A DNA stretch of 64,000 nt. Origin: a virus. The translations under genes and the position numbers were made by a program. Shown here piece after piece: positions 1 through 53,596 of the stretch (its first letter is position 1; every line of letters starts with the position of its first letter). The notes under the pieces are model-generated. The model saw only the letters and a program-made list of their open reading frames with translations. It was not told the DNA's origin and did not search any database. The stretch is from positions 17,731 through 81,730 of the IMG/VR virus record IMGVR_UViG_3300027971_000043; one strand, given 5' to 3'.

Positions 1-56
1 CAGAACGTGTACAAGGCGGGTGCAGACGAAGCCCTCCGATTGGCCGCTGTCCAAGG

Positions 57-218
57 ATGACAAAGAAACCACGTAAAGGATTATGTATGCTGGGAATGGT
101 ACTACTCTGTTTCCAGCTCGTAGGCTTTATGGTTGTGACCTGGTCGGTCTACTTAATGTACGTTGGTGCATACCATAGAACTTGCGAAATGATAGAGAAG
201 AAACTACTTGGGCGCTAA
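57..218 (+). CDS. small membrane protein (53 aa)
   Basis: Hand-translated MTKKPRKGLCMLGMVLLCFQLVGFMVVTWSVYLMYVG...; ATGA overlap with the stop of an upstream partial ORF; one hydrophobic segment. Confidence 0.55.
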   Translation: MTKKPRKGLCMLGMVLLCFQLVGFMVVTWSVYLMYVGAYHRTCEMIEKKLLGR

Positions 219-219
219 A

Positions 220-381
220 TTAAAAATGCTCGCCTAACCACGTTTCAAAGTCATCCAATTTATTCCCGAGTTCCTCGGGGGTTATGATACCAAGAGAACA
301 AGCCCGCGCAAATTGCAGAATATCGGTGACTTGTTCTGGAAGTATCGCAAACTCCGGGGACTCGGGAATATTTTTTAACAC
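220..381 (-). CDS. hypothetical protein
   Basis: ORF track 220..411; the GTG at 381 preceded by AAGGA is the more likely start. Confidence 0.45.
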   Translation of the reverse strand: MLKNIPESPEFAILPEQVTDILQFARACSLGIITPEELGNKLDDFETWLGEHF

Positions 382-502
382 AGTTTCATCCTTCTTCCGA
401 TAAGTATACACAAAGTTTTAATAATTGAAAGCGTAACAAGGCACGTAAGCCAAATAATATCACGCTTTGTGTTCCTCATTTCCCCATTTTGTCCCAGCCA
501 TA

Positions 503-530
503 TTGACTTGGCAACCCCATTAGTCAGCAT
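503..530 (+). promoter_or_regulatory. sigma70-like promoter TTGACT-N16-CAGCAT
   Basis: Lies 6 nt before the GTG at 537; same geometry as other promoters in the window. Confidence 0.45.
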
Positions 531-536
531 TGAATT

Positions 537-791
537 GTGCCTAAGAAGCTCGCAGAAGCAAAGTTCGGCGAACTATCCGAACAGTTCCTCCGTGTATTAC
601 TCGCCGCAGCTGCGGTCGATGGTAAATCGGAAGAGTTGGTTATTACCCGCAAGGCTTTCCATGATCTGCACGAGAAGTTAAAGGAAGGTTATAATCCAGA
701 GATTGATGTTTGGTATGAGGACAATGAGCTTCACGTAGCCTTAGCCTGGAGCGAAGTTCCTATTGTTGGGTTCAGAAAAATCCGTGGCTAA
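537..791 (+). CDS. hypothetical protein (84 aa)
   Basis: ORF with upstream promoter motif and protein-like composition. Confidence 0.65.
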   Translation: MPKKLAEAKFGELSEQFLRVLLAAAAVDGKSEELVITRKAFHDLHEKLKEGYNPEIDVWYEDNELHVALAWSEVPIVGFRKIRG

Positions 792-894
792 AAATAAAAA
801 GAAAAAGCTTAAGAGCTTAATCGATCACTCGCATCGACCACGCCAAGGCTTGCTCGATAAGGTTGCCAAGCTGGCGTTGTACCACAAGAACTAA
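784..894 (+). CDS. small basic hypothetical protein (36 aa)
   Basis: Hand-translated MAKNKKKKLKSLIDHSHRPRQGLLDKVAKLALYHKN; overlaps previous stop. Confidence 0.35.
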   Translation: MAKNKKKKLKSLIDHSHRPRQGLLDKVAKLALYHKN

Positions 895-2225
895 CGGCTT
901 ATTTCTTCCCAATCAACGGAAGTGAATAAATCAGCATTGGGATTGTTTGCTGCGCAAACAACTGAAAACTCAAAGGCTGTTCCTAAGATACCATTTCGTT
1001 CTAACTGATTGGCGAAGAGGGCTTCTTTTAGAATATCGATACCTCCACCAGTTTGCTGGGTGGTGCTGAAATAACCAGACGCCATAATTCTTCCCGCTGT
1101 CGTGAGTGTTGTTGCTGTAAGGTTGTATTCTACCGCGCTGTCGGCGCCAGCGCTCACCCACGTTCCCCCTGAAGATATACTTGCGTTCCTAACCTGCCAG
1201 TTAAAGGTGTCTCCTGTGGTTTTTCCAAGCAAAGAGAGAGCTGTTATGATAACTACGGCATCCGTTCGGTCTACAGGAGGAGTGCTAGCGGAAGACTTCA
1301 ATCTGAGTGTGACGACTGGATAAAAGGTTCCAGCTGTGGTTAGTCTAAAGGGGCTTGTGACCGCAGTCCCGACAGCGTGTTGGGCTCCTCTCAATTCATA
1401 TCCGCCTTCGGATAAAACCGTAGAGCAAACTTGTTTGAGGGTGCTGGAGCTAGAAGTAACCCCTGTGTTTTTAATTTCGTACCGAAGTGGGAGACTTGCC
1501 GTTGTTATATAAGTTGACGTAATTAAATTGGCATGATGAAACGAATGACAAAGAATAAACTGACCGTTAATTATAAATCCTAGACGAACAGTTCCAAGAC
1601 CTAACCATTCGATGTCCATCCAGAAAATCTGGGCTTTTGTAATATCAAGAGTTATACCAGAAGGGCCAGTCCCATCAAGCTTGTCCCCATTCCAATCAGC
1701 TTGAGCTACTGGGATTTCTGTAACGATTCCAGTTACCAAAGACCGTTCAACTAGACTCAACGCGTTACCATAAAGCTCAACATATAAGCCGTTATCATCG
1801 CCATAATAGCCAACCCTCTGGCGAAGATTTGTTTTAGTTGGACTCATAACAAATGTATTCATGACCAATAAAGATTTTCCAGGTTGGTAAGAAAATACTT
1901 TTGTTGTCTCTCGAATTATCTCGTCATTATTTGCTGTACCAATTGTTAAATCCATGAGACCCTGGCTCGCGTTGAAAGTAGCTGAAGCGGTGCCAGAAGT
2001 ATAAGTCGACCACAGCCCATTGTCCCGATAGCGATGGCTGGAATCAAAAAGGGTGAAGGGTTCGGAGACCCTTAAACGACCGAAGGAATCGGTGGGGAAC
2101 GACCCAATAATACCGCCAGATCCACCACTCGAAAGGTTATCAAGGCTACTGGAGATCTTCTGGAGACTGCGAACTTCCGTGTCTGACCAGAGAGGTGTGT
2201 TATTCTCTGGAAAATATTCAGGCAT
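891..2225 (-). CDS. putative virion structural protein (444 aa, beta-rich)
   Basis: DSFGRLRVSEPFTLFDS and WLGLGTVRLGF motifs recalled from a widespread aquatic-phage family; last gene of the structural operon. Confidence 0.6.
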   Translation of the reverse strand: MPEYFPENNTPLWSDTEVRSLQKISSSLDNLSSGGSGGIIGSFPTDSFGRLRVSEPFTLFDSSHRYRDNGLWSTYTSGTASATFNASQGLMDLTIGTANNDEIIRETTKVFSYQPGKSLLVMNTFVMSPTKTNLRQRVGYYGDDNGLYVELYGNALSLVERSLVTGIVTEIPVAQADWNGDKLDGTGPSGITLDITKAQIFWMDIEWLGLGTVRLGFIINGQFILCHSFHHANLITSTYITTASLPLRYEIKNTGVTSSSSTLKQVCSTVLSEGGYELRGAQHAVGTAVTSPFRLTTAGTFYPVVTLRLKSSASTPPVDRTDAVVIITALSLLGKTTGDTFNWQVRNASISSGGTWVSAGADSAVEYNLTATTLTTAGRIMASGYFSTTQQTGGGIDILKEALFANQLERNGILGTAFEFSVVCAANNPNADLFTSVDWEEISR

Positions 2226-2239
2226 ATTTTCCTATCCGA

Positions 2240-3016
2240 CTATTTGATTGTGGCGTATCTTCCGAGTCCCGTTTTTTGTAGAGTGGGAGCTTCAAATTTT
2301 GATCTATCATAAGTTAAAGTTACAGATTTAGTATCTCCTCCACCAACTCTCAACTGTTCCGCCGCATTTCTATCCTCAAGTCCACTTACTTTTTGAGCTA
2401 CTTTTGTTGGGTCTAATTTACTCTGCATCCACGAAGCGGGTAACAAAGAGCCAGTCCCGTATATACCTTTAAATGCGCCAGCTTTTTCTTGACCCGCTCC
2501 TGTACCACCAGCAATTACCTGTTGAGCTGCCGAGCCAGCTTCAATTACTCCAGTTTTTGTTTTAGCCATTTCCTGAGCTTTCTGAGCTTCGGCAAAAGCT
2601 TTATCATATGTTGACTCTTGAGCTTTCATTTTACCAAGCAAAGCAGATTCTTGTTCGACTGCCTTAGTGATGCCAGATACAGCGCTTGGGTCCCAAGATT
2701 TTAATGGCCCCTGCTTACCTTGTACGTAGGCTGTTCCAGGCGAAAGGTATTGCCCAAGTATTGCCTCTCCCGCTTGAGAGCCTCGCGCTAACTCTTGTGC
2801 TGATTCATAAGCACTTTTTGGTCGCGGCTTTCCGTAGTTAGGGTTAAAATATTTATTCCAGTTATATGGGTCGAGCATTTCCGGAGTTAGTTTAAAATTT
2901 CCTTCAGGAATAGTGCCATCAGTGTTATATACGCCTCCTATTTTACCGGGCCCTCGATACCGTTCGTCGAATCGACTGTACGAACTAAGATTAGCAAATT
3001 TCCCGAGAACTGGCAT
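2240..3016 (-). CDS. hypothetical protein, possible internal virion protein (258 aa)
   Basis: A/G/K/Q-rich ORF in the structural operon; begins MPVLGK and ends TGLGRYATIK. Confidence 0.7.
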   Translation of the reverse strand: MPVLGKFANLSSYSRFDERYRGPGKIGGVYNTDGTIPEGNFKLTPEMLDPYNWNKYFNPNYGKPRPKSAYESAQELARGSQAGEAILGQYLSPGTAYVQGKQGPLKSWDPSAVSGITKAVEQESALLGKMKAQESTYDKAFAEAQKAQEMAKTKTGVIEAGSAAQQVIAGGTGAGQEKAGAFKGIYGTGSLLPASWMQSKLDPTKVAQKVSGLEDRNAAEQLRVGGGDTKSVTLTYDRSKFEAPTLQKTGLGRYATIK

Positions 3017-3017
3017 A

Positions 3018-3155
3018 TTAATACTTCCCTAAACCTCGACCTTTGTTCCGGACTTTTGGCATGACGTAAGGCTTCTTATCTACTTTAAGAGATGGCGATT
3101 TGTCGGTCGGCATCTTCGCATTCTTTTGGTTCATGTTAAGAGAGTAATTTTTCAT
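3018..3155 (-). CDS. small basic protein (45 aa)
   Basis: Hand-translated MKNYSLNMNQKNAKMPTDKSPSLKVDKKPYVMPKVRNKGRGLGKY; fills the gap with 1-nt spacing on both sides. Confidence 0.7.
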   Translation of the reverse strand: MKNYSLNMNQKNAKMPTDKSPSLKVDKKPYVMPKVRNKGRGLGKY

Positions 3156-3156
3156 A

Positions 3157-3312
3157 TTATTTGTTCTTGGATTTACCGGCTGCACTTAAAGCAATCGCAA
3201 TGATTTGCGCTCTTGGGCGCGGTGTTCCACCAGCTCCGCGGGCTTTTCCTTTTTTCTTATTATCAGCGTAAAGTTCGCTGATGTTGGCTGAGACATTTTT
3301 ACCTAATGGCAT
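3157..3312 (-). CDS. small basic phage protein (51 aa)
   Basis: MPLGKNVSANISELY...QIIAIALSAAGKSKNK, resembles the common phage MPLKKG..SENISE..QAVAIAL type. Confidence 0.75.
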   Translation of the reverse strand: MPLGKNVSANISELYADNKKKGKARGAGGTPRPRAQIIAIALSAAGKSKNK

Positions 3313-3322
3313 AACTTTTAGT

Positions 3323-3520
3323 TTACTTGGACTCCTCTCTATCGTCAACACCATCCTCATTAACATCTTTGAAGGCACCGGGATCGCGGGTAAAAATTTT
3401 CTTAGCCAGCATATAGCGTTCTTCAGCAGACATTTCTGTCCACATTTCTGTCTTACCTCTTGGCTTCCAAAGGATTAGAGCAACAACAATAAAGACAAAA
3501 AATAAAACGGGCCAGAACAT
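3323..3520 (-). CDS. small membrane-anchored protein (65 aa)
   Basis: N-terminal hydrophobic helix; TAATG coupling with upstream gene. Confidence 0.65.
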   Translation of the reverse strand: MFWPVLFFVFIVVALILWKPRGKTEMWTEMSAEERYMLAKKIFTRDPGAFKDVNEDGVDDREESK

Positions 3521-3750
3521 TATTTACCTAACCCTGTTTTTTTCTTCCAGCTTATCCGTTCTGAACTCGTCTTTTTTCTGGCGGCTGAGTTACACATTGA
3601 CTTGGTGGGGCGACAAGCTGGATAACTACCACCACTGTCAGCCGACTTCCGGCCACATGGACCGCCTGTCTTACAGTTAATCCACCCTTTCCCTTTGTTC
3701 CTGGAAAACCAACCATGCAGGCCCTTCTTCTTTTCGAGCTCGAAGCCCAT
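3520..3750 (-). CDS. small basic Cys-containing phage protein (76 aa)
   Basis: GLHGWF..GWINCKTGGPCGR..YPACRP motif recalled from aquatic phages; translationally coupled. Confidence 0.75.
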   Translation of the reverse strand: MGFELEKKKGLHGWFSRNKGKGWINCKTGGPCGRKSADSGGSYPACRPTKSMCNSAARKKTSSERISWKKKTGLGK

Positions 3751-3899
3751 TATTTCTTCCCCTTGTTACCCCAGTTTGCTGCTCCAACTTTGCGACATCG
3801 AACAAGTGCACCACTGGCATAAGCGGATGGCCACACTTTGTAGCGAGCCTTTACCTTTTGAGTGCAAGCGTCGTTAGCTTTCTTTTTACCTAAAGGCAT
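3750..3899 (-). CDS. small basic phage protein (49 aa)
   Basis: MPLGK..DACTQKVKARYKVWPSAYASGALVRCRK, a conserved phage motif; ATG at 3899 lies 1 nt after the upstream stop. Confidence 0.8.
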   Translation of the reverse strand: MPLGKKKANDACTQKVKARYKVWPSAYASGALVRCRKVGAANWGNKGKK

Positions 3900-3900
3900 A

Positions 3901-4167
3901 TTAACAACTCCAAAGAACTTTTCGGGCCCAATAATTAGCTGACAGTTTCCCATCACCCCCTTTAATCCCACCACTCCTAGCACAATAACTCTTTCGCCTT
4001 TTGGCACTATGATGCTGAGTAAAATCTTTCATTGAGCTATCTCCAAAATGAATAATTCTTTCTTGCCCGCCAGAGCAAGCTTTGACAACTTTCTTCTTGC
4101 CCGGCCTCCACGACTTGCGCGGTTTGTTGCAGGGCATGTCGGCTTTGCTGGGCTTCCCTAGAGGCAT
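3901..4167 (-). CDS. small basic phage protein (88 aa)
   Basis: KKKVVKAC..IIHFGD..RRKSYCAR..KLSANYWA motif of a common phage family. Confidence 0.8.
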   Translation of the reverse strand: MPLGKPSKADMPCNKPRKSWRPGKKKVVKACSGGQERIIHFGDSSMKDFTQHHSAKRRKSYCARSGGIKGGDGKLSANYWARKVLWSC

Positions 4168-4715
4168 TATCGCTCCTGTGTTTGACCAATCCTCGAATCA
4201 ATGACGTCTGAATCTAGGATCGGTACTTTCTTGAGGATCATATCCATGTCCTTTGAAATCCTTTGGAGATTGGTGGTGTAGGGCTGAAGGCCACCAGTAA
4301 AGTATCCTCCCTGCTTTAAGCCCGTTGCATATCCCGCTACGTTGGTCGCAGACAAAGCCCCGCTATATCGAGGCATCTTAAGTTTCCTAGTCCAGTCCTC
4401 AAAGAACTGGTTGGGGCTTTCATAAGTCTTGAAAGGTTCGATGGCGGGTGCGTTGTTTTCTCCTTCAGTTGTGGCCATCTTTACCTGAGCTTCTCCAGCC
4501 TTGGCTTTGACTCCGCCTAGATTACCATATTTTTTAGCCAGCTCGGACTCACCGTATCCTGACTCCAAAGCTGTCTGCGCCAAGACCCACGACGGATCGA
4601 TGCCCAAATCTGCTGCCGCCTTCATCGCCGGAGAAAACATCTTCTTAACGTACGCAATTTTCTTTTCGGCCTGCGGGCCTAGTTGCTGTCTCCAATCTTG
4701 GGTTTCGTCTGCCAT
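4167..4715 (-). CDS. GH73 glucosaminidase (FlgJ-like), probable virion-associated peptidoglycan hydrolase
   Basis: AQTALESGYG, NLGGVKA, FKTYES and LKQGGYFT motifs; adjacent to internal virion genes. Confidence 0.85.
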   Translation of the reverse strand: MADETQDWRQQLGPQAEKKIAYVKKMFSPAMKAAADLGIDPSWVLAQTALESGYGESELAKKYGNLGGVKAKAGEAQVKMATTEGENNAPAIEPFKTYESPNQFFEDWTRKLKMPRYSGALSATNVAGYATGLKQGGYFTGGLQPYTTNLQRISKDMDMILKKVPILDSDVIDSRIGQTQER

Positions 4716-4728
4716 GGGGTTATTCTAA

Positions 4729-7700
4729 TTACTTTCTTTCTGGAAACAAGATACCCTCTTGATTTTTTTCAAGTAGAACATTTTGTAGGATAGGATTTTT
4801 TATCGTCTTGTTGACTTGCTGCATAAAGGTGATGAATTGGGGTCTACTCATTTTCTCCAGTTGAGGAATAAATGGAGCTAGGAAGTTCTCTATTACAGGC
4901 CCAGCACGTTGCATCCATTCGTACTTTTCGTCATTTGTTAACTCTCGGCTGATTTGGAAAAAGTCATCTGGTGTTAGAGTAACTCCATTGGCAGCGGCAT
5001 CTTTAATCAAATCCATCATGGCATAATTTTTTAACGGACCTGGATCCCAATCTAATGCATATCGGTTAGCTGCAAACAATGAGATTAATTTATCATGTAT
5101 TGCCTGTTGGCTACGCTCTCCGTTGTTATAAGCCATACCGTCCACTCCGACTGTAGTGAGACGCCGTAGAAATGGTACAGTATTTGACATTTGTGTCCTT
5201 ATATTCCCCCCTAAGAAATCAAGATCTGGTCTCCCAATTTTTGACGCAAAAGGTATTGAGGACATAAATACAGAAAGAAGATTTTCCTGATAGGGTCTTG
5301 CGCTGGGTGAACCCGTTAAGCCATTATAAGCCTGTTCAATATCTCTTGCCGTTGCATAACCGGGTATAAAGCTGGCAGTTATATTTCCCGCCAACTTTAC
5401 TGTTTTATCTATTATCATTTTTGGGTCTGTTCTTTGTGGGCCAGGCGAGGTTAGAGCCATGATTGACCTCAAACCACTTAAGAATCCTACGTCCAACATC
5501 GCCAAAGTTGTGACCATCCCAGCCGCTAGCGTACCCTCCAAAGCAGCTTCTACTTTCGATCTCTTGGAATATCTAACACTTTCAACATAAGAGGCAATAA
5601 GAGTAAGAACAGCTTGTATGCCTTGAGGGAAGAATTCAAAAGAAACAAATCTAGGTTTACCGCTTTTAAATGTGCCCAGCTGAATAGACTTTAACTTTCC
5701 TCCCGCCGCAAGAAATGCTTCTCTTTGTGTTGGATCTGCCGGTCCGTTTAAGTGGATGTTATTTTCTGGGTCATCTTCTCCCGACATCGCAGGTAAAAAT
5801 CTTAATCCAATAAGAAAAATTCCCATAAGACCAGTAAACATTTTACCCAACAATAAGTCATGTTCAATTGTTCCGGGAGTAGGGGGAGGCACAAAATATT
5901 TACTATCTTTTAATTTTCCGGCTGATCCTCTAATAAAACGAATCTGAGAAATGATGGGTAAAAACTTTAGCCCCTCATTTGCCAAGGCTGATCCTGTCCT
6001 CAAAAACTTAAGTAGAACTTTAAGTGCTTTAGCTTTTTCCCCAAGATCGTTTACAGTTCCAGCTAAAAGACCAATATAACCTTCAAAATTATTTGTAAAA
6101 GAAGTTTGGGCTGCCAACGTTTGAGCTCTTTTTGTGATTTCTTTTACGGCATCTTCGTCCGGTCTATTCTGAGCTATAATCTCTTCTACCCGTAAAGTCT
6201 GCTCAGTCGGAGTAAGACTAAACTCTTTTGCCTCTGCTGCGGCTTTTGCTTCTGCCCGGGATCTAGCTTCCGGAGACATGTTCAATAATCTGGCAACCTC
6301 GGCTTCAATCTCTTCCTGTGTCGTTAGTCCCTGGTCTATGGCTACATTAGTTGCCTCTAAGACCTCGGCCATTTTTTTAGTCGATACTTTTATCAAAGCA
6401 TCTCCAGCTTGCATAGCTCTTCCAAACCAAATGTAAGGACCTAGTAGACCGTATTTTTTACTAATAGCCTTGGGGTCGAGAGGTAGTGTGTACTCTTTTC
6501 CAAATGCTTTTATTGGGAGTTCTGGCCTAATAGAACTTTGTCCCTTTCTATAGGCTTCGGCTTGGTTTACGATCGCTTCAAAAGTATTAATGCCGCCATA
6601 CTCCTGATTCAACACGTCGGAAATATCGGAATAATTACCGCTTAACATTGTATTTAAAGCTGCTGCGTATGCTTTTCCTTTTGGAGAAAAGATTGCTTGA
6701 TTAAGAGAAGGAAGAGCTGAAAGATAAGCTTTGCCTAATGCTTTTTCTTGTTCTTTGTTGAGCGCAGCTCCAATGGCATACTTTACTCCTCCAGCCGCGG
6801 TTAACAGAAAAGCGTTAAGTTCGGCGTTTAATAACGATCCGAACGCGTTGATACCAACAGTTCCAACTGAACTTAGTAGACCTGCGGTTTGATAATTAAT
6901 TAACAAATCAGACCAAACAACGGGAGCAACAAACTTAATGTATTGATACATTTCATTGATTGCTTTTTGTCTTATCATTCCTTTTGGCAATACACTCAGG
7001 GCTTCAATTTTTTTATTAAGTTCTTTGCGTTGTTCCTGAGTCATCTCGGGAAGTCCGAGTTGCGAATGCATCTGAACAAAAACGTCATCATCAGAAAGGA
7101 CTCCAAGATTTGCAGACTCAATAAGCTTGTCTAAAGCAGATCGTATCTTTCGAGTTTTGCGCTCTTTCTTCTTTTCAAAATTTTCTTTGATTCGTTTTAA
7201 GGCGTCTTTTCTCTCGCTAGCAATAAGTTCAGTCATCCCTTCGCGAAGGAAGTCGAGAACTTCTTTCTTTTGAGCTTCATCAAGATTAGTATTCTCGGTT
7301 AGCAAAGCCCCCATTTTATTTTCAAAGTCCATGATATCGCCACGGCTGGCTCGGATAAGACTACGTAGATTTGTCTTAGGTCCCCCAATAGACTCCAAAG
7401 CCCTAACGGTTTGCTTGAGGCTAGACACAGCAAAGGGTCTTCCAAACGCTTCTTCAATAAACGGTTCGAGCCCGATTAACTCTTGCTCATTGTAGTTGTT
7501 TCGAAGCGATTCCCGAACGTTGTTGATAAACTCTTTAACTTCTGGATACTGTGCAATCCGATCTTTAAGAACTTCGGCTTCGGTAGGTTTAGGTAGAGGT
7601 TCAAATACAGGTTGTAGCCCACCCATTTCTTTTGTGCGTTGGGCAATCAATCTTCGAGTCCGCATTGCAAACTCTTCAAGAGCATCCTTAACTTTTGGTT

Positions 7701-10700
7701 GTTTCTGGAGGCGAGCTGCTTGTTTTTGTAAAGCGTCTGCGGAAGCTTCGGCCAGGGCTAATTCCGGAGGAAGATTATTTGGAACTATTACAGGTGCTTC
7801 TTGAGCGGCTTTTGCTTTTGCTTGAGCAACTCTTTGGATTGCTTCTCCTCGCGTGGACGGAGGAGGAATAACTTCAGCAGCCTGACCAACTCTAGTGCCA
7901 GCTTCTCTCGCTCTCGCTTCTCTTAATGCTTTAGCTTGGAAGAATTCAAGGGCATAGGTTAGGGCAGAGTCAAAATAAAGTTCCAACTTTCTTCTTACAT
8001 TTTCTTGATTCTTTGCATCACGCACAACGGGAGCCAACATCACCAACCGTTTGATCTCATCAGCTGAAGCGGCTGTCTCCCGCGGATTTTCTGAACGTTC
8101 AATGATTCCTAGAATGACTCTACCCAAAGCTCTGGACTGATCTGGATCAAGGCGAATGTCATCTCCACCCATACCCGGCTCGGGGGCCGCCGCAATATCA
8201 GCTCCAAGCCACTCCGTCAAACCCTTACTAACTTCTTCGCTTTCAAGATAATCCGATATCACCGCTTGAATCTGCGATAATGTTCCACCCTTTTTGTTTA
8301 GATCAACTAGTTTTCCAAGTTGATCCTGAACTGCTTGCAGATTATTTCCTTTTATGGTTTTCTTAGCAGTCGTAAATTTTTCAGCAGCTCTTCGATTCGC
8401 ATCTTTTAATGCCATAGCAATTTCGTCATTTTCCTCTGCGTAACCTTGTAGTTTGCCTTTAAGCGTCTTATCTATTTGACGATACACAAAAAGTTTTGCT
8501 CTTTCGGGATTATCAAAAATTAACGAATCCAGTCCACTCCACATTTGAACTGCCCTTCCAGCTTCAGTCCCATACTTTTTAGCTGCAATCAGTGCAACAT
8601 CTATCAATTGACTTTCAGCAAATTTATCTGTTTTTGCTTTTTCTCTAAGCGTGTTCATTAGTTCAAAAGCAACTCCTGTTTGCACAGGAAGAGAAGCGTT
8701 AATATTTCCAGCTAAAAATTGTTGCAATGATTTATCAAATCCATTTTCTGCTATGTAATTTCTAGCGTCTTCTATCTGTTGTTCTTGTGATACGGATGTG
8801 TAATACCATTCATTTAAAAGCCTATCTTTATCCGCTCCTTCAGGAATTTTATCTAAAACATTTAAGGCAATATTTTTTACGGCTTGGCTTTCACGAATCT
8901 CGGGGGCTGGTACCGGTATGACTCGAGTAATTTCAGGTGGTGGAACTGGAATTGAAACTGTTTCCCCGTCTAAAGAAACTGAAGTTACAATCGGTTTTTC
9001 AGTCACAATCTCTGGGGCTGGAGTTAGCCGACGAGCATAATTGTCATATCCAGCCCTACCGATAGCCGCAATCAGAGCACCGCGATTTTTGTAAGTATAA
9101 TTCCTGCCGTCAAAAATAATTTCGTTACGATCCTCAAACATCTTGGCAACCGTATTTGCCACAGCTCCGGCCGAAGTCTTAGCTGTCGTTGGATAAGATG
9201 GGTAGAATCCAATCTTTACATTGTATCGGCTGTACTCAGAAGGTTCAACCAGATTGACTGGCTCAGTCGTGGCTATAAAAGCTACAGCTGGCAATGACTC
9301 ACCCGACTCTTCCATACCTTCCGCAATCTCAAGGGCTTTGTTAGCGATCCCGGGAAGGCTTGCACGTCCACCATCCATCACGGATTTAGTCGCGGCCCGG
9401 AATAAATTGCGCTCTTGATTGGTAATCATTCCGCGACGAGCTGCGACATCCAAGCCGTCAAGCCAGTCGTTCACGTCAACCGTCTTGAATAGATCGTCAG
9501 CTGCGGTGACTCCAAATACTCCGTCGGTTCGGCCTTCAAGATGATTCTCAATCATTCGATAGATTCGAAGATCGTAGGAGTCGAACTTGTTGGCTGGACG
9601 TGGCGATGTCGGGGAACGACCGGGTTCGGGCGCTGCAACCGGCCCTGGCGCTGAAGCGTCCACAAAATACTTAGAAGTCTTACGAAGATTAGAAATGGCA
9701 TCTTCGATTCCTTGACGCAACACCAAGCGATCCGTGGCTTGAGGAGCCAAACCCAACCCACGCTTGACCACAGTGGCCATGCTATCAAACCACACGCCGA
9801 GTCTGGCAAGAACGGACTTGGGTTCTTGACCGACAAGATCCTTAAGGCGTTGTGTCGCTCTGGCAATATCTTTTGGATCTACTGAAGTGACTTGTTCGGT
9901 AATACCACCTGTAAGATTTAGCTGCGATAATTGTCGGATACCTTCCATAGAAACCTGGTAAGAATCATTGGCCAAAGCTTTTATTTTTCCTTGAATAACA
10001 GGATCGGTAATGTCAGATCCAAGTTGAGAATTATAAAGCCTGGCAATAGCCAATCGAGTAGCTTGGCTCATACCGTCTCCAATGGCTGTTAGTTCTTCAA
10101 CTGGATCAAGTCCAAGTTCACGAAAATATCTGTACGTTTCAACGTGAATTGTCTCCTCCAACATAACTTTGGTTAAGTACGATTTAAAATCTTTTGGTGA
10201 TACCCGAGATTTACTAACTGCTAGTTTCTCGGGATTAATAATAATTGTGTCGGATTCATTATCGGCTCCAGCCTGAGCTGCTACGCTATGCTCCGCCATA
10301 GGGGATACCAAAACATTGTAAATACGAGGCTGACCTTTGGCGTCTTTGAAGGTGACCGTATTGTCTTTGTAGTTAGTTCCAAGAACGGAAGTTAGTTCCG
10401 TGTCCACAAACTTTTGTTGCTCGGCGGTCGCTTCGTTTGTTTCTCTAACCGGAGCCACAGCCTCTTCGGCTCGCAGACCTTCAAAGCCAGCACCAACAGT
10501 AGCGTCAAGCAACCGCAACTTGGCCCGCATACGACCGATAGTGTTCTGGTCAATCTCAGCCTGCGATTCGAGGAATACAATGTTGGGACGGCTGGCGCTG
10601 TCTACACGCCAGACACGATAGATAAGTTGAACCGCTTGAATCGCGCTGATCGGAGGAGATAGAATGATCATCTCTCGGGACTCGTCACCAAACTTGTCAT

Positions 10701-13700
10701 CCAGTTCGATTCCGGTTCCGCCCATTTCCTTGGTCGCAATTAGAACATCAGCCTCTCCCTCATTAAACGCAGCCATTGCTTGTTCCTTGGTCTGCTCTGA
10801 ACCAGTGTACATCCGGGCGATCTTGAGAGTCGGATCAAGCTTGGCGATTGCGGCTTCGAGTGACGCGGAAGTAGGATTAACTGTCTCGCCTTTAGAGTTT
10901 TCATCCGAAACAAATCCAACATATAGTACGGGTTTCTTGCCACGTTTGATTGCATCTACTGCTCGTTTAGCGGCTGCGTCAACTTTGTATTCTTCAAGCG
11001 CACGTTTCTGAGCTGCTGCCATTTGTCGCAAAGCCGAGATGTCCACGTTCTGTGTTCCACCATACATCGCCTTGATGTCCTCAAGCTGTTGCTTGATCTG
11101 ATTATCAAGAGGAACATCTTGGAACTCTATGTCGACCCCGTCCAGTTTGAGCGAGCGGGAACGCATGATTCCGTTCTTCGCCATTCCGTCGAGATAAGCC
11201 TCCAACCGATCCTGCATTTCGGTTTCAGTAACTCCTTCGGCCAATTGCCAATAGAATTTCTTTCCGCCCTTAAGAGCATATTTTTGGAATCCAAGACGAC
11301 TAATTAAAGCATCGGGCGATTCATTATCAAATATTCCAAGTCGGCCAAGCGACAGCAATTGATCCGGAGTTTCAAACGGAGTACCTGAGGCCATCAATGT
11401 GCGCCCTGCTTTGTTGGCAATGTCATCCATTAACACTGCCCAAGATCGTGTCTTCCCACTTTGAATAGCTTTGGATAGGTTACGGCCAGAGTGTTGCTCA
11501 TCCAAAAGAACAACAGTCTTGTCATCAATTAAAGGCAAAAGCTGTTCGAGATATCCAGAATTGTACGTGGTAACAAGCATCCGACCAGGAACAAACTCAA
11601 TTGGCAATCCCCTTCCGCTCTCGCCCTTGCCCCCACGAACCGCCAACGGAACGCCTAGAATTGTCGCATCCTTCTGAATCGATCCACCAATTTCTCCATC
11701 GTCCCAGTTCGGTGTAACCGCATCAGGAGCCGTTATATAAACAACCTTATATCCCTTGTTGAGATAGTAGGCTCCAGTCCCAAGCAACACTCGCGTCTTT
11801 CCAGTTCCCGGTCCGTTCGCCAAATAAAACGCCTTGTGCTTGGAGTTCTCGATTGTGGTAACAGCCGCGGCTACGTCCTGTGCTTGTTCTTTAGACAGAT
11901 TGGAAAGAACCTGTTGTCCCGCTGGAGCAAGAATCTTTTCGTTGAAAGATTTACCTAACTGGTTGCGGGGTTCGACGAAGGACTTGGGGATCGGGGTGCC
12001 ACGAGGGCGCTCAACTCCAGGTCTCCCGGTTGCGGCTGGCGGACGCTCAACAGTTCGTTCCACTGCTTTCCGCTCCGCTGGAACGGTTTCTTCAAGAACT
12101 CGCTTTGTGGTGGTAGCGCGCTCCGCTTCGAGCTCGGCGAGCCTTGCGCGAGCTTCCTCACGTCGATCAGCGGGCGTCTTGGCTTCAGGTCTTGGGGTTG
12201 GTAGTTGTTCTGGTTGTTCATATGTTCCTTCCTCGTTTATGGTTAATCCGCTGTCGCGCAGGATTTGGTCACTGACGCGAAGCAGGTTTGACCGGAAAGC
12301 AGCCGCAATTTTGTTCTTGGCTTCTCCCTCCGGCATGGCTTCCGAAGCCAGATAAGGCTCGGCAAGTTTGTTTAATGTGGCGACATAGGCATCGGCTTGT
12401 TTCTGTGAAATTGTTCCGTCCTCGGTAGATTGCCGAAGATTGGTATCAATGGCTTCAGTGAGTTCTGTGATGGAATCTGGGGTTAGTTTAGAAGCAGCTA
12501 CGCTTTCAATAAAGTTATCAAACGACCTTAACAGATCGCCTGATCGAGACGATTGAACTTCGCCAAGCAAAGTCTTGGCGGCAACTAACTCGGCATCATC
12601 AAAGAAATTATCGGCTTGCAACTGGCGGAACCGGTCAACATAAGGCTTGATCTGGTTGGCCGTAAGGTTACCTTCGCGTACAACTCCGGCCGGTTCCTCA
12701 ACAGCGCGAACCGGTAGTGTCCCAGCTCGTTGACTGTTTCGATAATTGTTTTCCAAGCCCTGAACAAACTTAGTTCTGACCGCGGGTTGAAGAGCGTTGA
12801 TGTTATCAATTGTTGTTCCGATCTTGGCCGCTTCCGAAGCCACGTTTTTTACATCGCCAACCACGGCATCAAATGCCAGCTTCTCGGCATCCGTGGCCAA
12901 AGAGTTTCGGAAAGGTTGCTTAAAGTTTTCGGCAAGGATGGCAAGTGCTTCTTGTCGTTGAGCCGCGGAAGGAACTTCGACTTGACCCTCCATTTGAAAA
13001 TCTGTTTCAGTCGCGTCGATCTGGTCGAGTGTCTCGTTGATTGCGCCGGCGACCGCTGGGTTAAGACCCTGTTCTTCCGCCAGTGTCTCGGCATCCACAG
13101 CCTGAGTCCGAAGCCCAGGAGTTTCCATGCTAACCGCCGCGCCAATTCCAACGCCAGCTCGCATGCGGGGAACAGCCTGACGAATGAAATCCCGAAGACG
13201 GCTATTGAAAATAGTGCTTAAGGAAAGATTGCCTTTACCTTGACGCAGTTCATACAGGAACGAATTGATTGTTCCGTTTGAAACTTCGTCTGCAATGTTA
13301 TACTTCTGGTAACCAGCCAACGACTTGCTCTGAAGGTAAGTGTTCTTACGTTTGATATAAGCCATCAAAGTCTCGGCAGGATTCATTATGTTTCGGCCGT
13401 TTTCATCAATCGCGCCAAGACTCTGGAGCAATTCAACCGTTGATGGGTTCTTTAGATTAAACACATCGCCTAGAGCATTTACATCATTCTCTCTGGGGTC
13501 GGGGGCTAGCTTCTGGAACTTCTGATAAGATGCTTGTTCGGGATTATTGATAGCCAAGACAACGTCAGGTCGGGCTTCTAGTTCGGGTGAAATCGCTCCG
13601 CTTTTGATTCCCGCATTAGTCTCTCGTTCAAACTGTCCGATCAAGCTGGCTACGCTTTGTTCTCCGCGAGCTCCGCGTTCCAACTCTCCCTGACCTTGCA

Positions 13701-15981
13701 TGGCCTGCAACTTGGCAAGCTGTTCTTCAAGGGCCGGAGTTTCTTCCAAAGGAGACTGCCTGATTTTGGTCTGCAAAGCTGTGATCTGATCGGAAATCTT
13801 TTTAGCCCTGAACTCAGCGGGTCTTTCCTCGGCAACCAACTCTTGTTGCTGGGCAAGACGAGTTTCCAACGCAGTCTGAATTTGGCTTGGTCCCAGATGC
13901 CTCGAAGCGATGGCCTCAATCTCTGGCATCGATCCAGCCGTGTCTAATAAATCGCTGATCTCATCGACCTGATCTTGTGTGATCCCTGGTTTGTTCTCGA
14001 TCTCCTGCAAGATTGCATCCTTCTCATCCTGCATAATCTCCGCAGGATCTTCCTTACCGATCCAATTACCCTCGGCATCCTTGACTCCTAGAACCTGATA
14101 TCGTGATCCGTCCTCACTAAGCTTTCCGTAAACGCGACCCTGACTTTCAAGCCAGTCAATCTTAGCTTGATTGGCGGGGGTGGAAGAAAGGTCAATCGAG
14201 GTAACTCCCTTTTGAAATACGTTGACTAACTCATTGAATGCCCCAATAACTTCCTCATCAGTTTCTGGAACTCCAGCTTCTATGGTCGGAGGAACTCCCA
14301 TTTGTTTTGGCTGTACTTGAGCCTGAGCTTCTGCCACTTTGCTTGAAAGCAAAGATTCAATCGCGCCTTGCTTAGCATTGTTAATCGCTTCATCGGCTAC
14401 CGCCGTAGTTTCGGGAGCAGTTGTTGGGTCAAGAGAAGCCCGAACATTAACAGCGTCAAAAAGAGCTTGGGCTTGAGGACTGTTCAGAGATTCTCGAAGC
14501 TCAACAATTTGTTGCATTTTCTGATCTTCTGGAATCTTGGGGTCGTTCTTAATTCCAGTGACAGTTTGACGGAGAGTATCCGCAAACTTGTCATTCGCCA
14601 TCTGATTAAGTCTTGCTCTACGACCAACAAACCCTTCGGCCAATACCATGCCAAGACCGATACCGCCGGAAGCGGCTAAACTTTGCGGAATCTGAGCAAT
14701 AGGATCTTGTCCACGGGCAATCGCGTCAATCACATCGGATGAAGTTTCTCCGAGAGTTGTTCCAATGACCTTAGCCGTTCCCTGAACAACCGGGGCAAAC
14801 GCAGGAAGTTTGGTCTCAAGAGCTTTAGCAACCATGTGATTGGTCAAGGCGCGATCGGCCACGTCTTCCAATCTATTGCCGGCTTCCTCGGAAAGGGCTA
14901 ATACGCCGGCCTCACTCACAATCGAAGCTAACCGTTGTCCCACGTTCAAATTACGCGGGTCTTGGTCGAGGGATTGGGAGGCTCCGACAACTGCATAAGT
15001 TGCGCCCTTGGACAGAGTCGTGGGAACTTTAATTGTCTGCCCCGCAATATCTGCGGCTTTGCCCAACAAGCCTGTTGCCCCAGCGCCAACTGCCATAAAT
15101 TGACCCAAAGAACCGGTGGCCAATCCAGCCAAAGTAGATGGCATGTAATTCTTTTGAATTACATCGTTGATCCCATTGGTCAAAGCGGCTCGACGGGCTA
15201 CTTGGTCAGGATCATTTTCGTCAACAATAATGTCTCCGATGGAAACAAAAGGAACGAAAGCATCACCGGATTGAACTGCAAAATTACGGAGTCCCGCGGT
15301 ACCAAGTTTCTTTGTCTTGTCACTCTGAAGGTCTTTGTAGTATTCCTGTGCTCGGGCCAGGTTCATTCCAACTTTCGGAGTATTCCACGCGCCAAGCCCG
15401 AACTCCATCGCGGGAGCTTGATCCTTAGGGGCGATAGATTTCCCAGCAGTTAATTCATCGGAATAGAGAGCACCAAGCTCAAGGGCTTTCGCAGCTTGGG
15501 TAGAGTCCTTGATTGTTCCAATGTAATTGCGGGATGCCAAACTTTCCTGCATGGCTTTGGCATCTTCATTCGTAATCCCGAGTCCGCTCTGCAAATAAGA
15601 TCCAATAACTTTACCCACACCTCCGACAGCAATTTTGGTAAGCCCTAACCAGTCATTGTTTTTTTCGGCATCAAGGGTGGCTTGGGAAGTAGATTTTATG
15701 TAATCATTAACATTCTTCTGAGCATCCTGCCACGACTGTGTATTAAAAGGAAGTTTACCTTCCTTAAAACGGGTGGCTGTTCCGAGTAAAAGATCGTTGG
15801 CTTTCGGGTTATCCCGAAGCTCCATAAGTTGGCTGGCTTGAGCCAAAGCCGAAGAAGGCTGGCTTAGTATAGAATCAAGTTCGTCCTGTTGCTGGGTCGG
15901 GGGTTGTCCAAGAATATCTCCGACAATGCTGTCAAGGCTATTAGGCAAACCAGCATCCAAAGGGGAAAGGGGATCTGCCAT
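4729..15981 (-). CDS. giant polyvalent internal virion protein (3750 aa) with strawberry-notch/DarB-type SF2 helicase
   Basis: FYLANGPGTGKT (Walker A), LLDEQH, SGTPF, GTGIELDD, QLIYRVWR; an EETIH zincin-like motif; position among ejection proteins. Confidence 0.85.
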   Translation of the reverse strand: MADPLSPLDAGLPNSLDSIVGDILGQPPTQQQDELDSILSQPSSALAQASQLMELRDNPKANDLLLGTATRFKEGKLPFNTQSWQDAQKNVNDYIKSTSQATLDAEKNNDWLGLTKIAVGGVGKVIGSYLQSGLGITNEDAKAMQESLASRNYIGTIKDSTQAAKALELGALYSDELTAGKSIAPKDQAPAMEFGLGAWNTPKVGMNLARAQEYYKDLQSDKTKKLGTAGLRNFAVQSGDAFVPFVSIGDIIVDENDPDQVARRAALTNGINDVIQKNYMPSTLAGLATGSLGQFMAVGAGATGLLGKAADIAGQTIKVPTTLSKGATYAVVGASQSLDQDPRNLNVGQRLASIVSEAGVLALSEEAGNRLEDVADRALTNHMVAKALETKLPAFAPVVQGTAKVIGTTLGETSSDVIDAIARGQDPIAQIPQSLAASGGIGLGMVLAEGFVGRRARLNQMANDKFADTLRQTVTGIKNDPKIPEDQKMQQIVELRESLNSPQAQALFDAVNVRASLDPTTAPETTAVADEAINNAKQGAIESLLSSKVAEAQAQVQPKQMGVPPTIEAGVPETDEEVIGAFNELVNVFQKGVTSIDLSSTPANQAKIDWLESQGRVYGKLSEDGSRYQVLGVKDAEGNWIGKEDPAEIMQDEKDAILQEIENKPGITQDQVDEISDLLDTAGSMPEIEAIASRHLGPSQIQTALETRLAQQQELVAEERPAEFRAKKISDQITALQTKIRQSPLEETPALEEQLAKLQAMQGQGELERGARGEQSVASLIGQFERETNAGIKSGAISPELEARPDVVLAINNPEQASYQKFQKLAPDPRENDVNALGDVFNLKNPSTVELLQSLGAIDENGRNIMNPAETLMAYIKRKNTYLQSKSLAGYQKYNIADEVSNGTINSFLYELRQGKGNLSLSTIFNSRLRDFIRQAVPRMRAGVGIGAAVSMETPGLRTQAVDAETLAEEQGLNPAVAGAINETLDQIDATETDFQMEGQVEVPSAAQRQEALAILAENFKQPFRNSLATDAEKLAFDAVVGDVKNVASEAAKIGTTIDNINALQPAVRTKFVQGLENNYRNSQRAGTLPVRAVEEPAGVVREGNLTANQIKPYVDRFRQLQADNFFDDAELVAAKTLLGEVQSSRSGDLLRSFDNFIESVAASKLTPDSITELTEAIDTNLRQSTEDGTISQKQADAYVATLNKLAEPYLASEAMPEGEAKNKIAAAFRSNLLRVSDQILRDSGLTINEEGTYEQPEQLPTPRPEAKTPADRREEARARLAELEAERATTTKRVLEETVPAERKAVERTVERPPAATGRPGVERPRGTPIPKSFVEPRNQLGKSFNEKILAPAGQQVLSNLSKEQAQDVAAAVTTIENSKHKAFYLANGPGTGKTRVLLGTGAYYLNKGYKVVYITAPDAVTPNWDDGEIGGSIQKDATILGVPLAVRGGKGESGRGLPIEFVPGRMLVTTYNSGYLEQLLPLIDDKTVVLLDEQHSGRNLSKAIQSGKTRSWAVLMDDIANKAGRTLMASGTPFETPDQLLSLGRLGIFDNESPDALISRLGFQKYALKGGKKFYWQLAEGVTETEMQDRLEAYLDGMAKNGIMRSRSLKLDGVDIEFQDVPLDNQIKQQLEDIKAMYGGTQNVDISALRQMAAAQKRALEEYKVDAAAKRAVDAIKRGKKPVLYVGFVSDENSKGETVNPTSASLEAAIAKLDPTLKIARMYTGSEQTKEQAMAAFNEGEADVLIATKEMGGTGIELDDKFGDESREMIILSPPISAIQAVQLIYRVWRVDSASRPNIVFLESQAEIDQNTIGRMRAKLRLLDATVGAGFEGLRAEEAVAPVRETNEATAEQQKFVDTELTSVLGTNYKDNTVTFKDAKGQPRIYNVLVSPMAEHSVAAQAGADNESDTIIINPEKLAVSKSRVSPKDFKSYLTKVMLEETIHVETYRYFRELGLDPVEELTAIGDGMSQATRLAIARLYNSQLGSDITDPVIQGKIKALANDSYQVSMEGIRQLSQLNLTGGITEQVTSVDPKDIARATQRLKDLVGQEPKSVLARLGVWFDSMATVVKRGLGLAPQATDRLVLRQGIEDAISNLRKTSKYFVDASAPGPVAAPEPGRSPTSPRPANKFDSYDLRIYRMIENHLEGRTDGVFGVTAADDLFKTVDVNDWLDGLDVAARRGMITNQERNLFRAATKSVMDGGRASLPGIANKALEIAEGMEESGESLPAVAFIATTEPVNLVEPSEYSRYNVKIGFYPSYPTTAKTSAGAVANTVAKMFEDRNEIIFDGRNYTYKNRGALIAAIGRAGYDNYARRLTPAPEIVTEKPIVTSVSLDGETVSIPVPPPEITRVIPVPAPEIRESQAVKNIALNVLDKIPEGADKDRLLNEWYYTSVSQEQQIEDARNYIAENGFDKSLQQFLAGNINASLPVQTGVAFELMNTLREKAKTDKFAESQLIDVALIAAKKYGTEAGRAVQMWSGLDSLIFDNPERAKLFVYRQIDKTLKGKLQGYAEENDEIAMALKDANRRAAEKFTTAKKTIKGNNLQAVQDQLGKLVDLNKKGGTLSQIQAVISDYLESEEVSKGLTEWLGADIAAAPEPGMGGDDIRLDPDQSRALGRVILGIIERSENPRETAASADEIKRLVMLAPVVRDAKNQENVRRKLELYFDSALTYALEFFQAKALREARAREAGTRVGQAAEVIPPPSTRGEAIQRVAQAKAKAAQEAPVIVPNNLPPELALAEASADALQKQAARLQKQPKVKDALEEFAMRTRRLIAQRTKEMGGLQPVFEPLPKPTEAEVLKDRIAQYPEVKEFINNVRESLRNNYNEQELIGLEPFIEEAFGRPFAVSSLKQTVRALESIGGPKTNLRSLIRASRGDIMDFENKMGALLTENTNLDEAQKKEVLDFLREGMTELIASERKDALKRIKENFEKKKERKTRKIRSALDKLIESANLGVLSDDDVFVQMHSQLGLPEMTQEQRKELNKKIEALSVLPKGMIRQKAINEMYQYIKFVAPVVWSDLLINYQTAGLLSSVGTVGINAFGSLLNAELNAFLLTAAGGVKYAIGAALNKEQEKALGKAYLSALPSLNQAIFSPKGKAYAAALNTMLSGNYSDISDVLNQEYGGINTFEAIVNQAEAYRKGQSSIRPELPIKAFGKEYTLPLDPKAISKKYGLLGPYIWFGRAMQAGDALIKVSTKKMAEVLEATNVAIDQGLTTQEEIEAEVARLLNMSPEARSRAEAKAAAEAKEFSLTPTEQTLRVEEIIAQNRPDEDAVKEITKRAQTLAAQTSFTNNFEGYIGLLAGTVNDLGEKAKALKVLLKFLRTGSALANEGLKFLPIISQIRFIRGSAGKLKDSKYFVPPPTPGTIEHDLLLGKMFTGLMGIFLIGLRFLPAMSGEDDPENNIHLNGPADPTQREAFLAAGGKLKSIQLGTFKSGKPRFVSFEFFPQGIQAVLTLIASYVESVRYSKRSKVEAALEGTLAAGMVTTLAMLDVGFLSGLRSIMALTSPGPQRTDPKMIIDKTVKLAGNITASFIPGYATARDIEQAYNGLTGSPSARPYQENLLSVFMSSIPFASKIGRPDLDFLGGNIRTQMSNTVPFLRRLTTVGVDGMAYNNGERSQQAIHDKLISLFAANRYALDWDPGPLKNYAMMDLIKDAAANGVTLTPDDFFQISRELTNDEKYEWMQRAGPVIENFLAPFIPQLEKMSRPQFITFMQQVNKTIKNPILQNVLLEKNQEGILFPERK

Positions 15982-40645: not shown

Positions 40646-41047
40646 ATGAACAGTTGTACAAAAGGCAAAGTCGGAGAACGTGAGTGGCGCGACGTCCTCA
40701 AGGCGAAAGGTTTCGAGGCAAGGCGCGGTCGCCAGTTCTCGGGGAGCCCGGAATCGCCAGATGTTGTCAGCAACCTCCCTTTTCACTTTGAAGTCAAAAG
40801 GGTTGAGGCACTCAACATTAATAAAGCAATGGAGCAGGCCAAACGAGACAGTGGCAAGAGTGTGCCAGTTGTGGCCCATAGAAAAAACAAGTGCCCGTGG
40901 CTTGTTACGATGGCTGCGGAAGATTGGCTTGAACTAGTTCGTGAAAAACACTCAGACGCTTGTTCAACTTCGCTCGTGGCAGGAGAAATCAAAAAGTATT
41001 ATACTTCAGGCAATTCAGAACCACTCGATCGCGCTGGATTGCTCTGA
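40646..41047 (+). CDS. Holliday junction resolvase-like PD-(D/E)XK nuclease
   Basis: KGKVGERE..PDVV..HFEVKR..PVVAHRKN. Confidence 0.85.
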   Translation: MNSCTKGKVGEREWRDVLKAKGFEARRGRQFSGSPESPDVVSNLPFHFEVKRVEALNINKAMEQAKRDSGKSVPVVAHRKNKCPWLVTMAAEDWLELVREKHSDACSTSLVAGEIKKYYTSGNSEPLDRAGLL

Positions 41048-51735: not shown

Positions 51736-51740
51736 TGATT

Positions 51741-51993
51741 CGAAGGGTGTAGGGTGGGGGGTGGAGGGGTGGTTTTGAACTCGTTGTTCCTACAGCTTTG
51801 CGTGTGTGCCGCGTGTGTCAAAACTTCCGGAACGAGTTGGAGTACCCCCACCCACCCCCACCACTCCCACCCTCTCTTTCTTTATATTTATATATTTAAA
51901 TAATAAACATATACTTACACAAGGACCTGAGGTTAAAAATTTGGGTGGGGGTACCACTTTTTGACCCCCCACCCTAGGCGACACCCCCACCCT
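51741..51993. repeat. CCCCCACCC iteron-like repeats and nested inverted repeats around an AT-rich core, candidate origin
   Basis: 13-bp inverted repeats 51749-51761/51964-51976 and 51842-51854/51942-51954. Confidence 0.6.
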
Positions 51994-52711
51994 GGATATA
52001 GCCCTTTGAGGCTAAAACCTTAACCAACGAAGCCATCTCGTCATACTTATCGGCCATTGACTTGTTGAACCCACAGAAATGGAACAATTGTTTAGTTAGG
52101 TCGAATGGATTGTAACCGGCGAACAGTTGCACCCCTTGGGCTATGTCATGGCATTTGCCCATTTCAAAGTTCGTAGCTAGGCAGATCCCGTAGTTGTAGG
52201 ATGACTGCTCCAGGATAGCGTCATCTGGCAGTATCGTCAGGATGTGCGGCTCGAACAAGGATCTGACACTAGCCGTAAACCCTAGGTCTTTGAATCCGAA
52301 TGTGCCGGCGTTTAACCCTTTTAGCATAGAAAACTTAAGCTTATCTAAATTTGATGCTTGCCTATATTGAAACCATTCCTGGCTCATAAGGTTTTCCTTT
52401 TCGACTACAACCGTAAAGTCCTTGTCCGGGTTGATTAATTCCATCGGGTTGCCGAAGTAAAGAATGTCTGGATCTAGGAACAAATAGTAGTCGTACCATT
52501 TTGGGATAAGTTCCGAGTACTTAAGAAATCCGCCGTAGAGATAGTCCTTTGGGTCAACAATAACTTTGTGTTTGAATCCTTCCGGCCCAGGCTTGTTCGA
52601 CATAACGCAGAAGTCGACATTGTCCGGTAGAGTCATATGCTCGACCAGCAGATCAATACAGTTGTGAGAGTCTTCGTTGAAGTCTGTTGCCGTGTAGACT
52701 AGGACTTTCAC
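51974..52711 (-). CDS. GT-A fold glycosyltransferase (GT8-like)
   Basis: LFLDPDIL, LNAGTF, LEQSSYN, LFHFCG. Confidence 0.8.
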   Translation of the reverse strand: MKVLVYTATDFNEDSHNCIDLLVEHMTLPDNVDFCVMSNKPGPEGFKHKVIVDPKDYLYGGFLKYSELIPKWYDYYLFLDPDILYFGNPMELINPDKDFTVVVEKENLMSQEWFQYRQASNLDKLKFSMLKGLNAGTFGFKDLGFTASVRSLFEPHILTILPDDAILEQSSYNYGICLATNFEMGKCHDIAQGVQLFAGYNPFDLTKQLFHFCGFNKSMADKYDEMASLVKVLASKGYIQGGGVA

Positions 52712-52718
52712 GCGGGCA

Positions 52719-52746
52719 ATTGTATTTCTCCCTTTACAAAAGTCAA
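52719..52746 (-). promoter_or_regulatory. promoter TTGACT-N16-TACAAT, overlapped by divergent TTTACA-N17-GACACT (+)
   Basis: 7 nt before GTG 52711; the plus-strand motif is 9 nt before ATG 52771. Confidence 0.6.
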
Positions 52747-53585: not shown

Positions 53586-53596
53586 AGGAGACACAT

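Follow-up and report, generated by a model that had tools for sequence, protein, structure and literature searches.

The window analysed here is a 64,000-nucleotide stretch, bases 17731-81730 of the virus record IMGVR_UViG_3300027971_000043 (81,730 bases in total). On its minus strand, a giant open reading frame (ORF; 4729..15981) encodes a conserved, multi-domain protein of 3750 amino acids (aa) with no Cys, a putative internal virion/ejection (polyvalent) protein. Three consecutive parts of this protein concern us, all on the minus strand: a basic four-helix domain resembling sigma region 2 (aa 864-944; 13150..13392; containing ADEVSNG...DFIRQ), an acidic, variable and partly disordered linker (aa 945-1005; 12967..13149), and a four-helix helix-turn-helix (HTH) domain resembling sigma region 4 (aa 1006-1086; 12724..12966; containing NSLATDAEK...VQGL). 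A first-pass annotation had read a sigma-factor-like domain here by eye. The three strings that it quoted are present exactly, at aa 897-935 (13177-13293), aa 950-955 (the linker motif VSMETP, 13117-13134) and aa 1026-1076 (12754-12906), and its span of 12750-13380 fits. Structure prediction shows aa ~864-1086 with the architecture of a small sigma70-family factor of the extracytoplasmic function (ECF) type, group 4, and we think it likely from the predicted models that the giant-protein family carries a very diverged sigma2-linker-sigma4 module.

Performing AlphaFold2 modelling of the window protein with an 18-sequence alignment, we obtained a model with a predicted local distance difference test score (pLDDT) of 78.6. 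It consists of a helix and hairpin, four helices (28-102), a disordered stretch (105-117), two variable helices and four further helices (166-246), with VSMETP, which the first-pass annotation had read as a finger, inside the disordered stretch (pLDDT <50). A replicate model of the homologue P0049 (29% identity to the window protein) has the same topology at pLDDT 74; its linker is longer and disordered at model residues 106-142 (pLDDT <50). In a Foldseek search the P0049 model ranked sigmaL first (E 0.032, prob 0.87), with sigma32 at E 0.032, and 42 of the 44 rows were sigma factors or initiation complexes. An unbiased VIA search of 48,161 chains clustered at 40% identity gave sigma in all of rows 1-19, about 2 Z units ahead. 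Taking both models together, two-domain alignments covered 165/174 residues of sigmaL, 149/159 of sigmaH, 158/186 of sigmaE and 124/138 of BldN. The predicted C-terminal domain has the four helices and the HTH of sigma4, whose superposition gave 2.1-3.0 Å over 69/69 residues, and the predicted order within the one chain is that of ECF-type factors: sigma2-like, flexible linker, sigma4-like.

For the window model itself, about 30 of the 44 Foldseek rows shown against the PDB were sigma factors or chain F of RNA polymerase (RNAP) initiation complexes (E 0.3-2); chain F we take, by convention, to be sigma. Realigning this model in VIA covered 158/186 residues of sigmaE and 161/174 of sigmaL, and a search of BFVD gave phage SigF/RpoE-like rows at E 0.4-1.1. 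The fold assignment extends to the family because P0049 and the window protein can be aligned at a profile E of ~1e-23. The AlphaFold and Foldseek comparison that the first-pass annotation had suggested ranks sigma first for the P0049 model and gives weak sigma matches for the window model, for which nothing in the PDB was matched at E <= 0.001.

The ESM Atlas, a protein language model resource, also led to sigma factors. A 'Sigma-70 family' cluster ranked third in the unfiltered matches and first, at 0.94, among the named clusters; 22 of the 30 named matches fell in a set that is mostly viral and in which 48% of the members carry PF04542, and two more sigma sets were reached. These results bear on a different explanation, in which the two domains, sigma4-like HTH and basic, make direct contact with nucleic acid, for instance the leading genome end in the capsid or the host chromosome, and not with RNAP, the sigma likeness reflecting shared HTH ancestry only. 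We judge this to be quite improbable. The two-domain alignments run near the whole chain in the right order (as for sigmaL and sigmaH above), sigma region 4 stands above every other HTH family for 19 rows of the P0049 VIA search, and the 22 Atlas matches carry Sigma70_r2, a family outside the HTH ones.

Several results weigh against the sigma assignment, and we set them out together. Searching Pfam and PHROGs with the whole protein and with aa 851-1090, we found no sigma match. None of the Sigma70 Pfam families matched at E <= 10 in 18 family members (0/18) or in 4 more distant ones (0/4), a negative from which HMMER filters may hide very weak matches. The profile check against Sigma70_r2 and Sigma70_r4 proposed by the first-pass annotation therefore failed. 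The sigma-like order that it had described holds at the level of the fold, where its strings lie on the domains aligning with regions 2 and 4 and VSMETP lies in the linker between them, and is lost at the level of Pfam (0/22 members). Four sequence and profile searches of the PDB returned no sigma chain; they gave chance matches to EsxB (E 0.35), LvrB (0.24) and alcohol dehydrogenase (0.24), or nothing. Neither did an exhaustive profile search match any sigma at E <= 0.001 among 1.84 billion representative proteins.

Profile-profile comparison belongs on the same side. Using hhalign with six E. coli sigmas, we find model positions 203-238 on RpoE 152-187 (region 4.2) with P 0.015 and a probability of 3%. 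With a 24-sequence ECF/group-3 profile, from which the L113 and L122 ORF picks are excluded after a failed phmmer check, the relaxed alignment was collinear over both domains (8-244 vs 22-214). In this comparison (P 0.018), ADEV falls opposite the AeD of region 2.2 and LSTIFNSRLRDFIR opposite region 2.3-2.4, in line with the earlier reading. Overall, the nominal P was 0.013-0.018 and the probability 2.5-3.3%. The hhalign score of 24.2 was reached by none of 100 column shuffles (mean 13.3, max 19.3), and the reversed query scored 11.0. Among 27 windows of the giant protein taken as a natural null, two overlapping ones outside the region beat its score of 22.7: aa 2731-2990 and aa 2861-3120, with scores of 24.5 and 31.8, which share one hydrophobic segment. 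We read the score of 31.8, at a membrane-like segment, as a compositional false positive. Because the natural null was not beaten, we do not count hhalign as independent support; it is consistent with sigma and is no evidence for it. At the sequence level the by-eye sigma motif match is without statistical significance.

The window model is also a weak witness. Its best match in the unbiased VIA search (Z 6.2) is an unrelated protein, about 8 of 50 rows are sigma, and TFIIB/cyclin folds reach Z values similar to those of sigma. Its sigma matches lie under the noise bars of the tools themselves, and the convincing ones come from the 29%-identical homologue. The ESM Atlas matches share 141-147 of 256 features, against 170 typical of the same family, a low count of the sort expected if the kinship is distant at most. 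The Asp of ADEV is lost in the most distant homologues, and the recognition helix of the window lineage has a net charge of 0 and contains a Pro.

Such results are also what one might see if there were no sigma kinship at all, and the region were one helical bead among many in a beads-on-a-string ejection protein, matched through common helical packing and the abundance of sigma chains in the PDB. Its sequence-profile tests are all negative or marginal, the scores of the window model fall inside the stated noise ranges of the tools, and many rows are not independent since sigma chains are mutually homologous. The giant N4 protein gp50, for its part, is described as a set of loosely connected domains (PMC13434306). 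Chance likeness does not account well for the P0049 model, which tops an unbiased library clustered at 40% identity with sigma by about 2 Z units, nor for the Atlas, a different method that reaches sigma clusters too, mostly viral ones. Agreement with sigma is seen as well in the hhalign alignment, which is collinear, in the acidic linker and in the distribution of charge, and we regard an accidental resemblance as unlikely. Since Pfam sigma profile membership fails, we call the module sigma-like in fold and do not file it as a member of the sigma family.

We then consider how the region is kept among homologues. A word-index search with aa 840-1100 returned 43 proteins, between 3406 and 4231 aa long and with identities from 100 down to 39%, and the region is collinear in 43/43. 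The exhaustive profile search of the 1.84 billion representatives returned 12 matches, all giant proteins or fragments of them, with the region present in 12/12 and no free-standing relative of the module; conservation in homologues, another check named by the first-pass annotation, was thereby confirmed. Together the 43 and 12 homologues span 2241-4629 aa, plus fragments; P0037 is in none of the alignments. The position of the module is constant in every family member, just upstream of a putative superfamily 2 (SF2) ATPase. Among 15 full-length homologues, identity to the window protein is 0.59-0.67 for aa 801-950 and 0.55-0.79 for the helicase core. The module is conserved as strongly as the helicase core and is confined, among the proteins searched, to the giant-protein family. 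Searching 50,697 phage records by blastn and tblastn, we found no match to the sigma-like region or to the helicase part.

Charge is distributed in the same way in 21/21 sequences: the basic domain carries +4 to +12, the linker -5 to -11 and the HTH domain -1 to +5, the E. coli sigma4 domains having a net charge of -3 to +3. The linker differs among homologues in length and sequence. In the sigma2-like domain the most conserved positions include R913, G915, LST and R939, in a loop and a long helix.

These features have to be set against a further possibility, that the fold is truly sigma-derived and binds core RNAP, the module serving as decoy or tether and having itself no specificity for promoters. 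It might outcompete host sigma and shut off host transcription, or it might keep RNAP at the ejectosome, where genome entry would be driven by the adjacent SF2 ATPase or by transcription. PhyR, a sigma-like domain that serves as a decoy, and RapA, an SNF2 ATPase that binds RNAP, are precedents. RapA is cited in the polyvalent-protein survey (PMC5512222). This possibility shares the fold evidence with the assignment that we prefer; the uncharged, Pro-containing recognition helix of the window lineage would be poor for base-specific DNA contacts, and the module is fused directly to an SF2/SNF2-like ATPase. Against it, the sigma2-like loop and long helix are among the most conserved parts, suggesting a specific ligand, and the recognition helices of distant homologues are more basic (+3 in P0048 and +5 in P0049). 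On balance we give the decoy or tether a small chance.

The rest of the giant protein was also inspected. Ahead of the sigma2-like domain, a short helix and hairpin (aa 841-863; 13393..13461, minus strand) is modelled with a helix at 6-15 (pLDDT 86-91) and keeps the motif LLQSLGAIDEN among homologues; a 15-residue HA2_N match seen here in 11/18 members was judged trivial. Downstream of the module lies a putative SF2 (Strawberry-notch/SNF2-like) ATPase core (aa 1362-1827; 10501..11898, minus strand). The fusion to a helicase claimed by the first-pass annotation holds in that Walker A GPGTGKT and DEQH motifs are readable there, with Pfam matches below cut-off: AAA_34 at 20.2 bits (cut-off 27), Helicase_C at 19.5 (cut-off 23.5), and ResIII and Helicase_C_4. 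Many giant-protein homologues carry precomputed PF13872/PF04851 annotations. Pfam and PHROGs gave no match of the giant protein to known ejection proteins, and Pfam gave no methylase or other effector domain listed for polyvalent proteins.

Two further stretches of the protein deserve mention. An acidic cluster at aa 240-259 (window 15205-15261, minus strand; D240, D250, D254, E255 and D259 in GDIIVDENDPD) lies in its most invariant block, with 16 invariant positions in aa 201-250, and could be a metal-binding or catalytic site, of a kind that we leave unassigned. A hydrophobic, membrane-like segment at aa ~2947-3003 (window 6973-7143, minus strand) marks where the C-terminal third of the protein begins, a well-conserved part that might enter membranes in the course of ejection.

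The giant ORF lies at the end of a minus-strand structural block. From the terminase the block runs to a 769-aa ORF, which has no family match and which we take to be the portal; tail proteins come next, then three unknown proteins (405, 483 and 548 aa) and the giant protein itself, followed by a glucosaminidase, by small genes and by a 444-aa virion protein. The succession of tail genes, unknown proteins, giant protein and glucosaminidase resembles that of T7 and N4 (see also PMC13434306). The size of the giant protein, its place in the gene order and its absence of Cys fit an ejected protein.

The 444-aa virion protein (window 891-2225, minus strand) shares 66-67% identity with a structural protein found in Synechococcus T4-like myophages (S-WAM2, S-RIM8, S-RIM12), and 132 of the 178 phage records matching it are named Synechococcus phages. 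Outside this protein, the phage has no close cultured relative. From its sequence, the 444-aa protein looks like an exchanged host-range module and a clue to the host. A match to PHROG 3704, 'ferredoxin' (auxiliary-metabolic-gene category), occurs at E ~1e-40 at window 52893-53585 (plus strand) and at L029 3170-3802 (plus strand), seen twice because the record ends are repeated; it fits a cyanophage. Given the Synechococcus-phage-like protein and the 'ferredoxin' family, the host is probably a picocyanobacterium.

The record ends repeat each other, 1-12605 against 69467-81730 (window ~51737-64000), at 83-97% identity; 11606-12605 against 80731-81730, for example, gives 95.6%. We suspect a concatemer, or else a chimera that joins two related strains. 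Because its first 12.6 kb repeat its last 12 kb, the unit genome is ~69.1 kb, and relatives measure 67.6-70.5 kb. Upstream of the window lie rIIA-like (780 aa, L029 11619-13961) and rIIB-like (283 aa, L029 13983-14834) genes, as in N4-like and T4-like phages, and the open ORF at the window end (63014-64000) is a second, diverged copy of the rIIA start.

We also looked for other transcription genes. A six-frame search of the record with Sigma70_r2 and Sigma70_r4 gave 0 matches at E <= 1, where HMMER filters may hide very weak ones, and none of 5 related records (0/5) matched Sigma70_r2 or Sigma70_r4_2. The T7-type RNAP profile PF00940 gave 0 matches in the record, a weak negative as control genomes are silent too. 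The PHROG matches of large ORFs, in the window and beyond it, include no RNAP; those outside the window are rIIA/rIIB-like and others. A cryptic RNAP inside the giant protein is ruled out, with 0 [DN]xDxD motifs in 3750 aa. The earlier statement that no phage RNAP is visible stands as far as these searches reach.

The window holds few intergenic gaps, and a repeat search for promoters yielded one 22-mer and otherwise only low-complexity A-rich families, from which no promoter class is definable. The sites named by the first-pass annotation, 55200-55330 and 56480-56580, overlap only the A-rich and ribosome-binding-site-like repeats D1 and D11. The 22-nt element, AAGTCAAAAGGRTTGAGRCACT, has exactly two copies, at 40791-40812 and 52740-52761 (plus strand), at the two divergent (-/+) intergenic regions, 40880-40940 and 52712-52892; by chance one would expect none (0/100 shuffles). 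We regard the element as a candidate for a promoter or operator shared by both regions, and it has no link to the sigma-like module.

Bringing these observations together, we propose a way in which the module might act. The giant protein would be carried inside the virion and exit the capsid together with the DNA, in the manner of N4 gp50 and T7 gp16. In the cell, the sigma2-like part would sit on the beta-prime clamp helices and the sigma4-like part on the beta flap of the host core RNAP, probably that of a picocyanobacterium. Polymerase would thereby be brought to the entering phage DNA for a first round of transcription, in a phage where neither a polymerase nor a free-standing sigma gene is detectable by Pfam or PHROGs. 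The module would either confer promoter specificity or only tether the polymerase. Docking on host core RNAP after ejection, with the start or tethering of early transcription, is suggested by the fold, by the failure of our searches to detect another polymerase or sigma, and by the N4/T7-like gene position; we place it a little short of an even chance. Co-folding of RPOC1_SYNE7 1-400, RPOB_SYNE7 660-880 and the module alignment A5, run without controls, gave ipSAE values of 0.23 and 0.17, below a mark of 0.32, and we weigh this on neither side of the binding question.

A more far-reaching form of the proposal, which we consider doubtful, is that this ~69-kb, probably picocyanobacterial, phage lineage packages a sigma-like adaptor as a bead of an ejected protein, fused to an SF2 motor. 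The adaptor would capture core RNAP at the mouth of the ejection channel and steer it to the leading end of the genome, giving early transcription, and perhaps transcription-driven DNA entry, without a phage polymerase or a host sigma.

Comparison with known systems places the module between several of them. It is like ECF sigmas (E. coli sigmaE, M. tuberculosis sigmaL and sigmaH) in the order sigma2, linker, sigma4, in the near whole-chain alignment and in the acidic linker. Unlike them, it has no profile-level sequence similarity, it is embedded at aa ~864-1086 of a 3750-aa protein and not free-standing, its linker is longer and has extra helices in the window lineage, and the canonical region 2 residues are not evidently kept. 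T4 gp55 is a highly diverged phage sigma-like factor, and the module shares with it, with phiKZ gp68 and with phage ECF-like sigmas a phage origin and a likeness to sigma that lies in the structure and hardly or not at all in the sequence. A jumbo-phage review describes phiKZ gp68 as structurally sigma-like, and reports phage RNAPs with sigma-like subunits as well as sigmas that phages encode on their own, but mentions none that is packaged (PMC13282480). Whereas such factors are separate, newly synthesised subunits serving middle or late genes or phage RNAPs, the module is a domain of a giant protein from the late structural module.

The N4 virion RNAP gp50 offers another parallel, being likewise a giant (~3500-aa), multi-domain protein of the structural module in a ~70-kb phage; rIIA/rIIB-like genes, too, are present in this phage as in N4. 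Ejection and the launching of early transcription are ascribed to gp50 (PMC13434306, PMC10770324), for which a beads-on-a-string model of ejection has been described (PMC13434306). Unlike N4 gp50 and the crAss-like and P23-45 tape-measure-fusion virion RNAPs, the giant protein has no RNAP domain that PF00940, PHROG or the [DN]xDxD motif could find, and its proposed activity is the borrowing of host polymerase via a sigma-like adaptor.

Polyvalent proteins of the P1 DarB type are similar in being very large and multi-domain, in having a putative SF2/Strawberry-notch-like ATPase and in being predicted to travel with the DNA into the cell. Strawberry-notch-like ATPases are reported for them in a survey whose main text has 0 occurrences of 'sigma' (PMC5512222). 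Another source lists co-injected proteins without a sigma (PMC12282133). A full-text literature search, with subscription papers and supplements outside its reach, returned no description of a virion or polyvalent protein that bears a sigma-like domain. Unlike polyvalent proteins, the giant protein has no detected methylase or other listed effector domain.

Phages are known to start infection either with the host holoenzyme at strong, host-type promoters or by injecting an RNA polymerase of their own. If our reading is true, a phage that injects a sigma-like adaptor would take over transcription from the first second of infection by another and less costly route. It would then form a third solution beside the virion RNAPs of N4, crAss-like phages, phiKZ and P23-45 and the reliance on host sigma seen for the T7 early genes. 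The predicted sigma fold was missed by profile methods and recovered by structure prediction and a protein language model both. If true, the finding would also give a function to part of the giant polyvalent/ejection proteins, whose domains mostly lack known roles.

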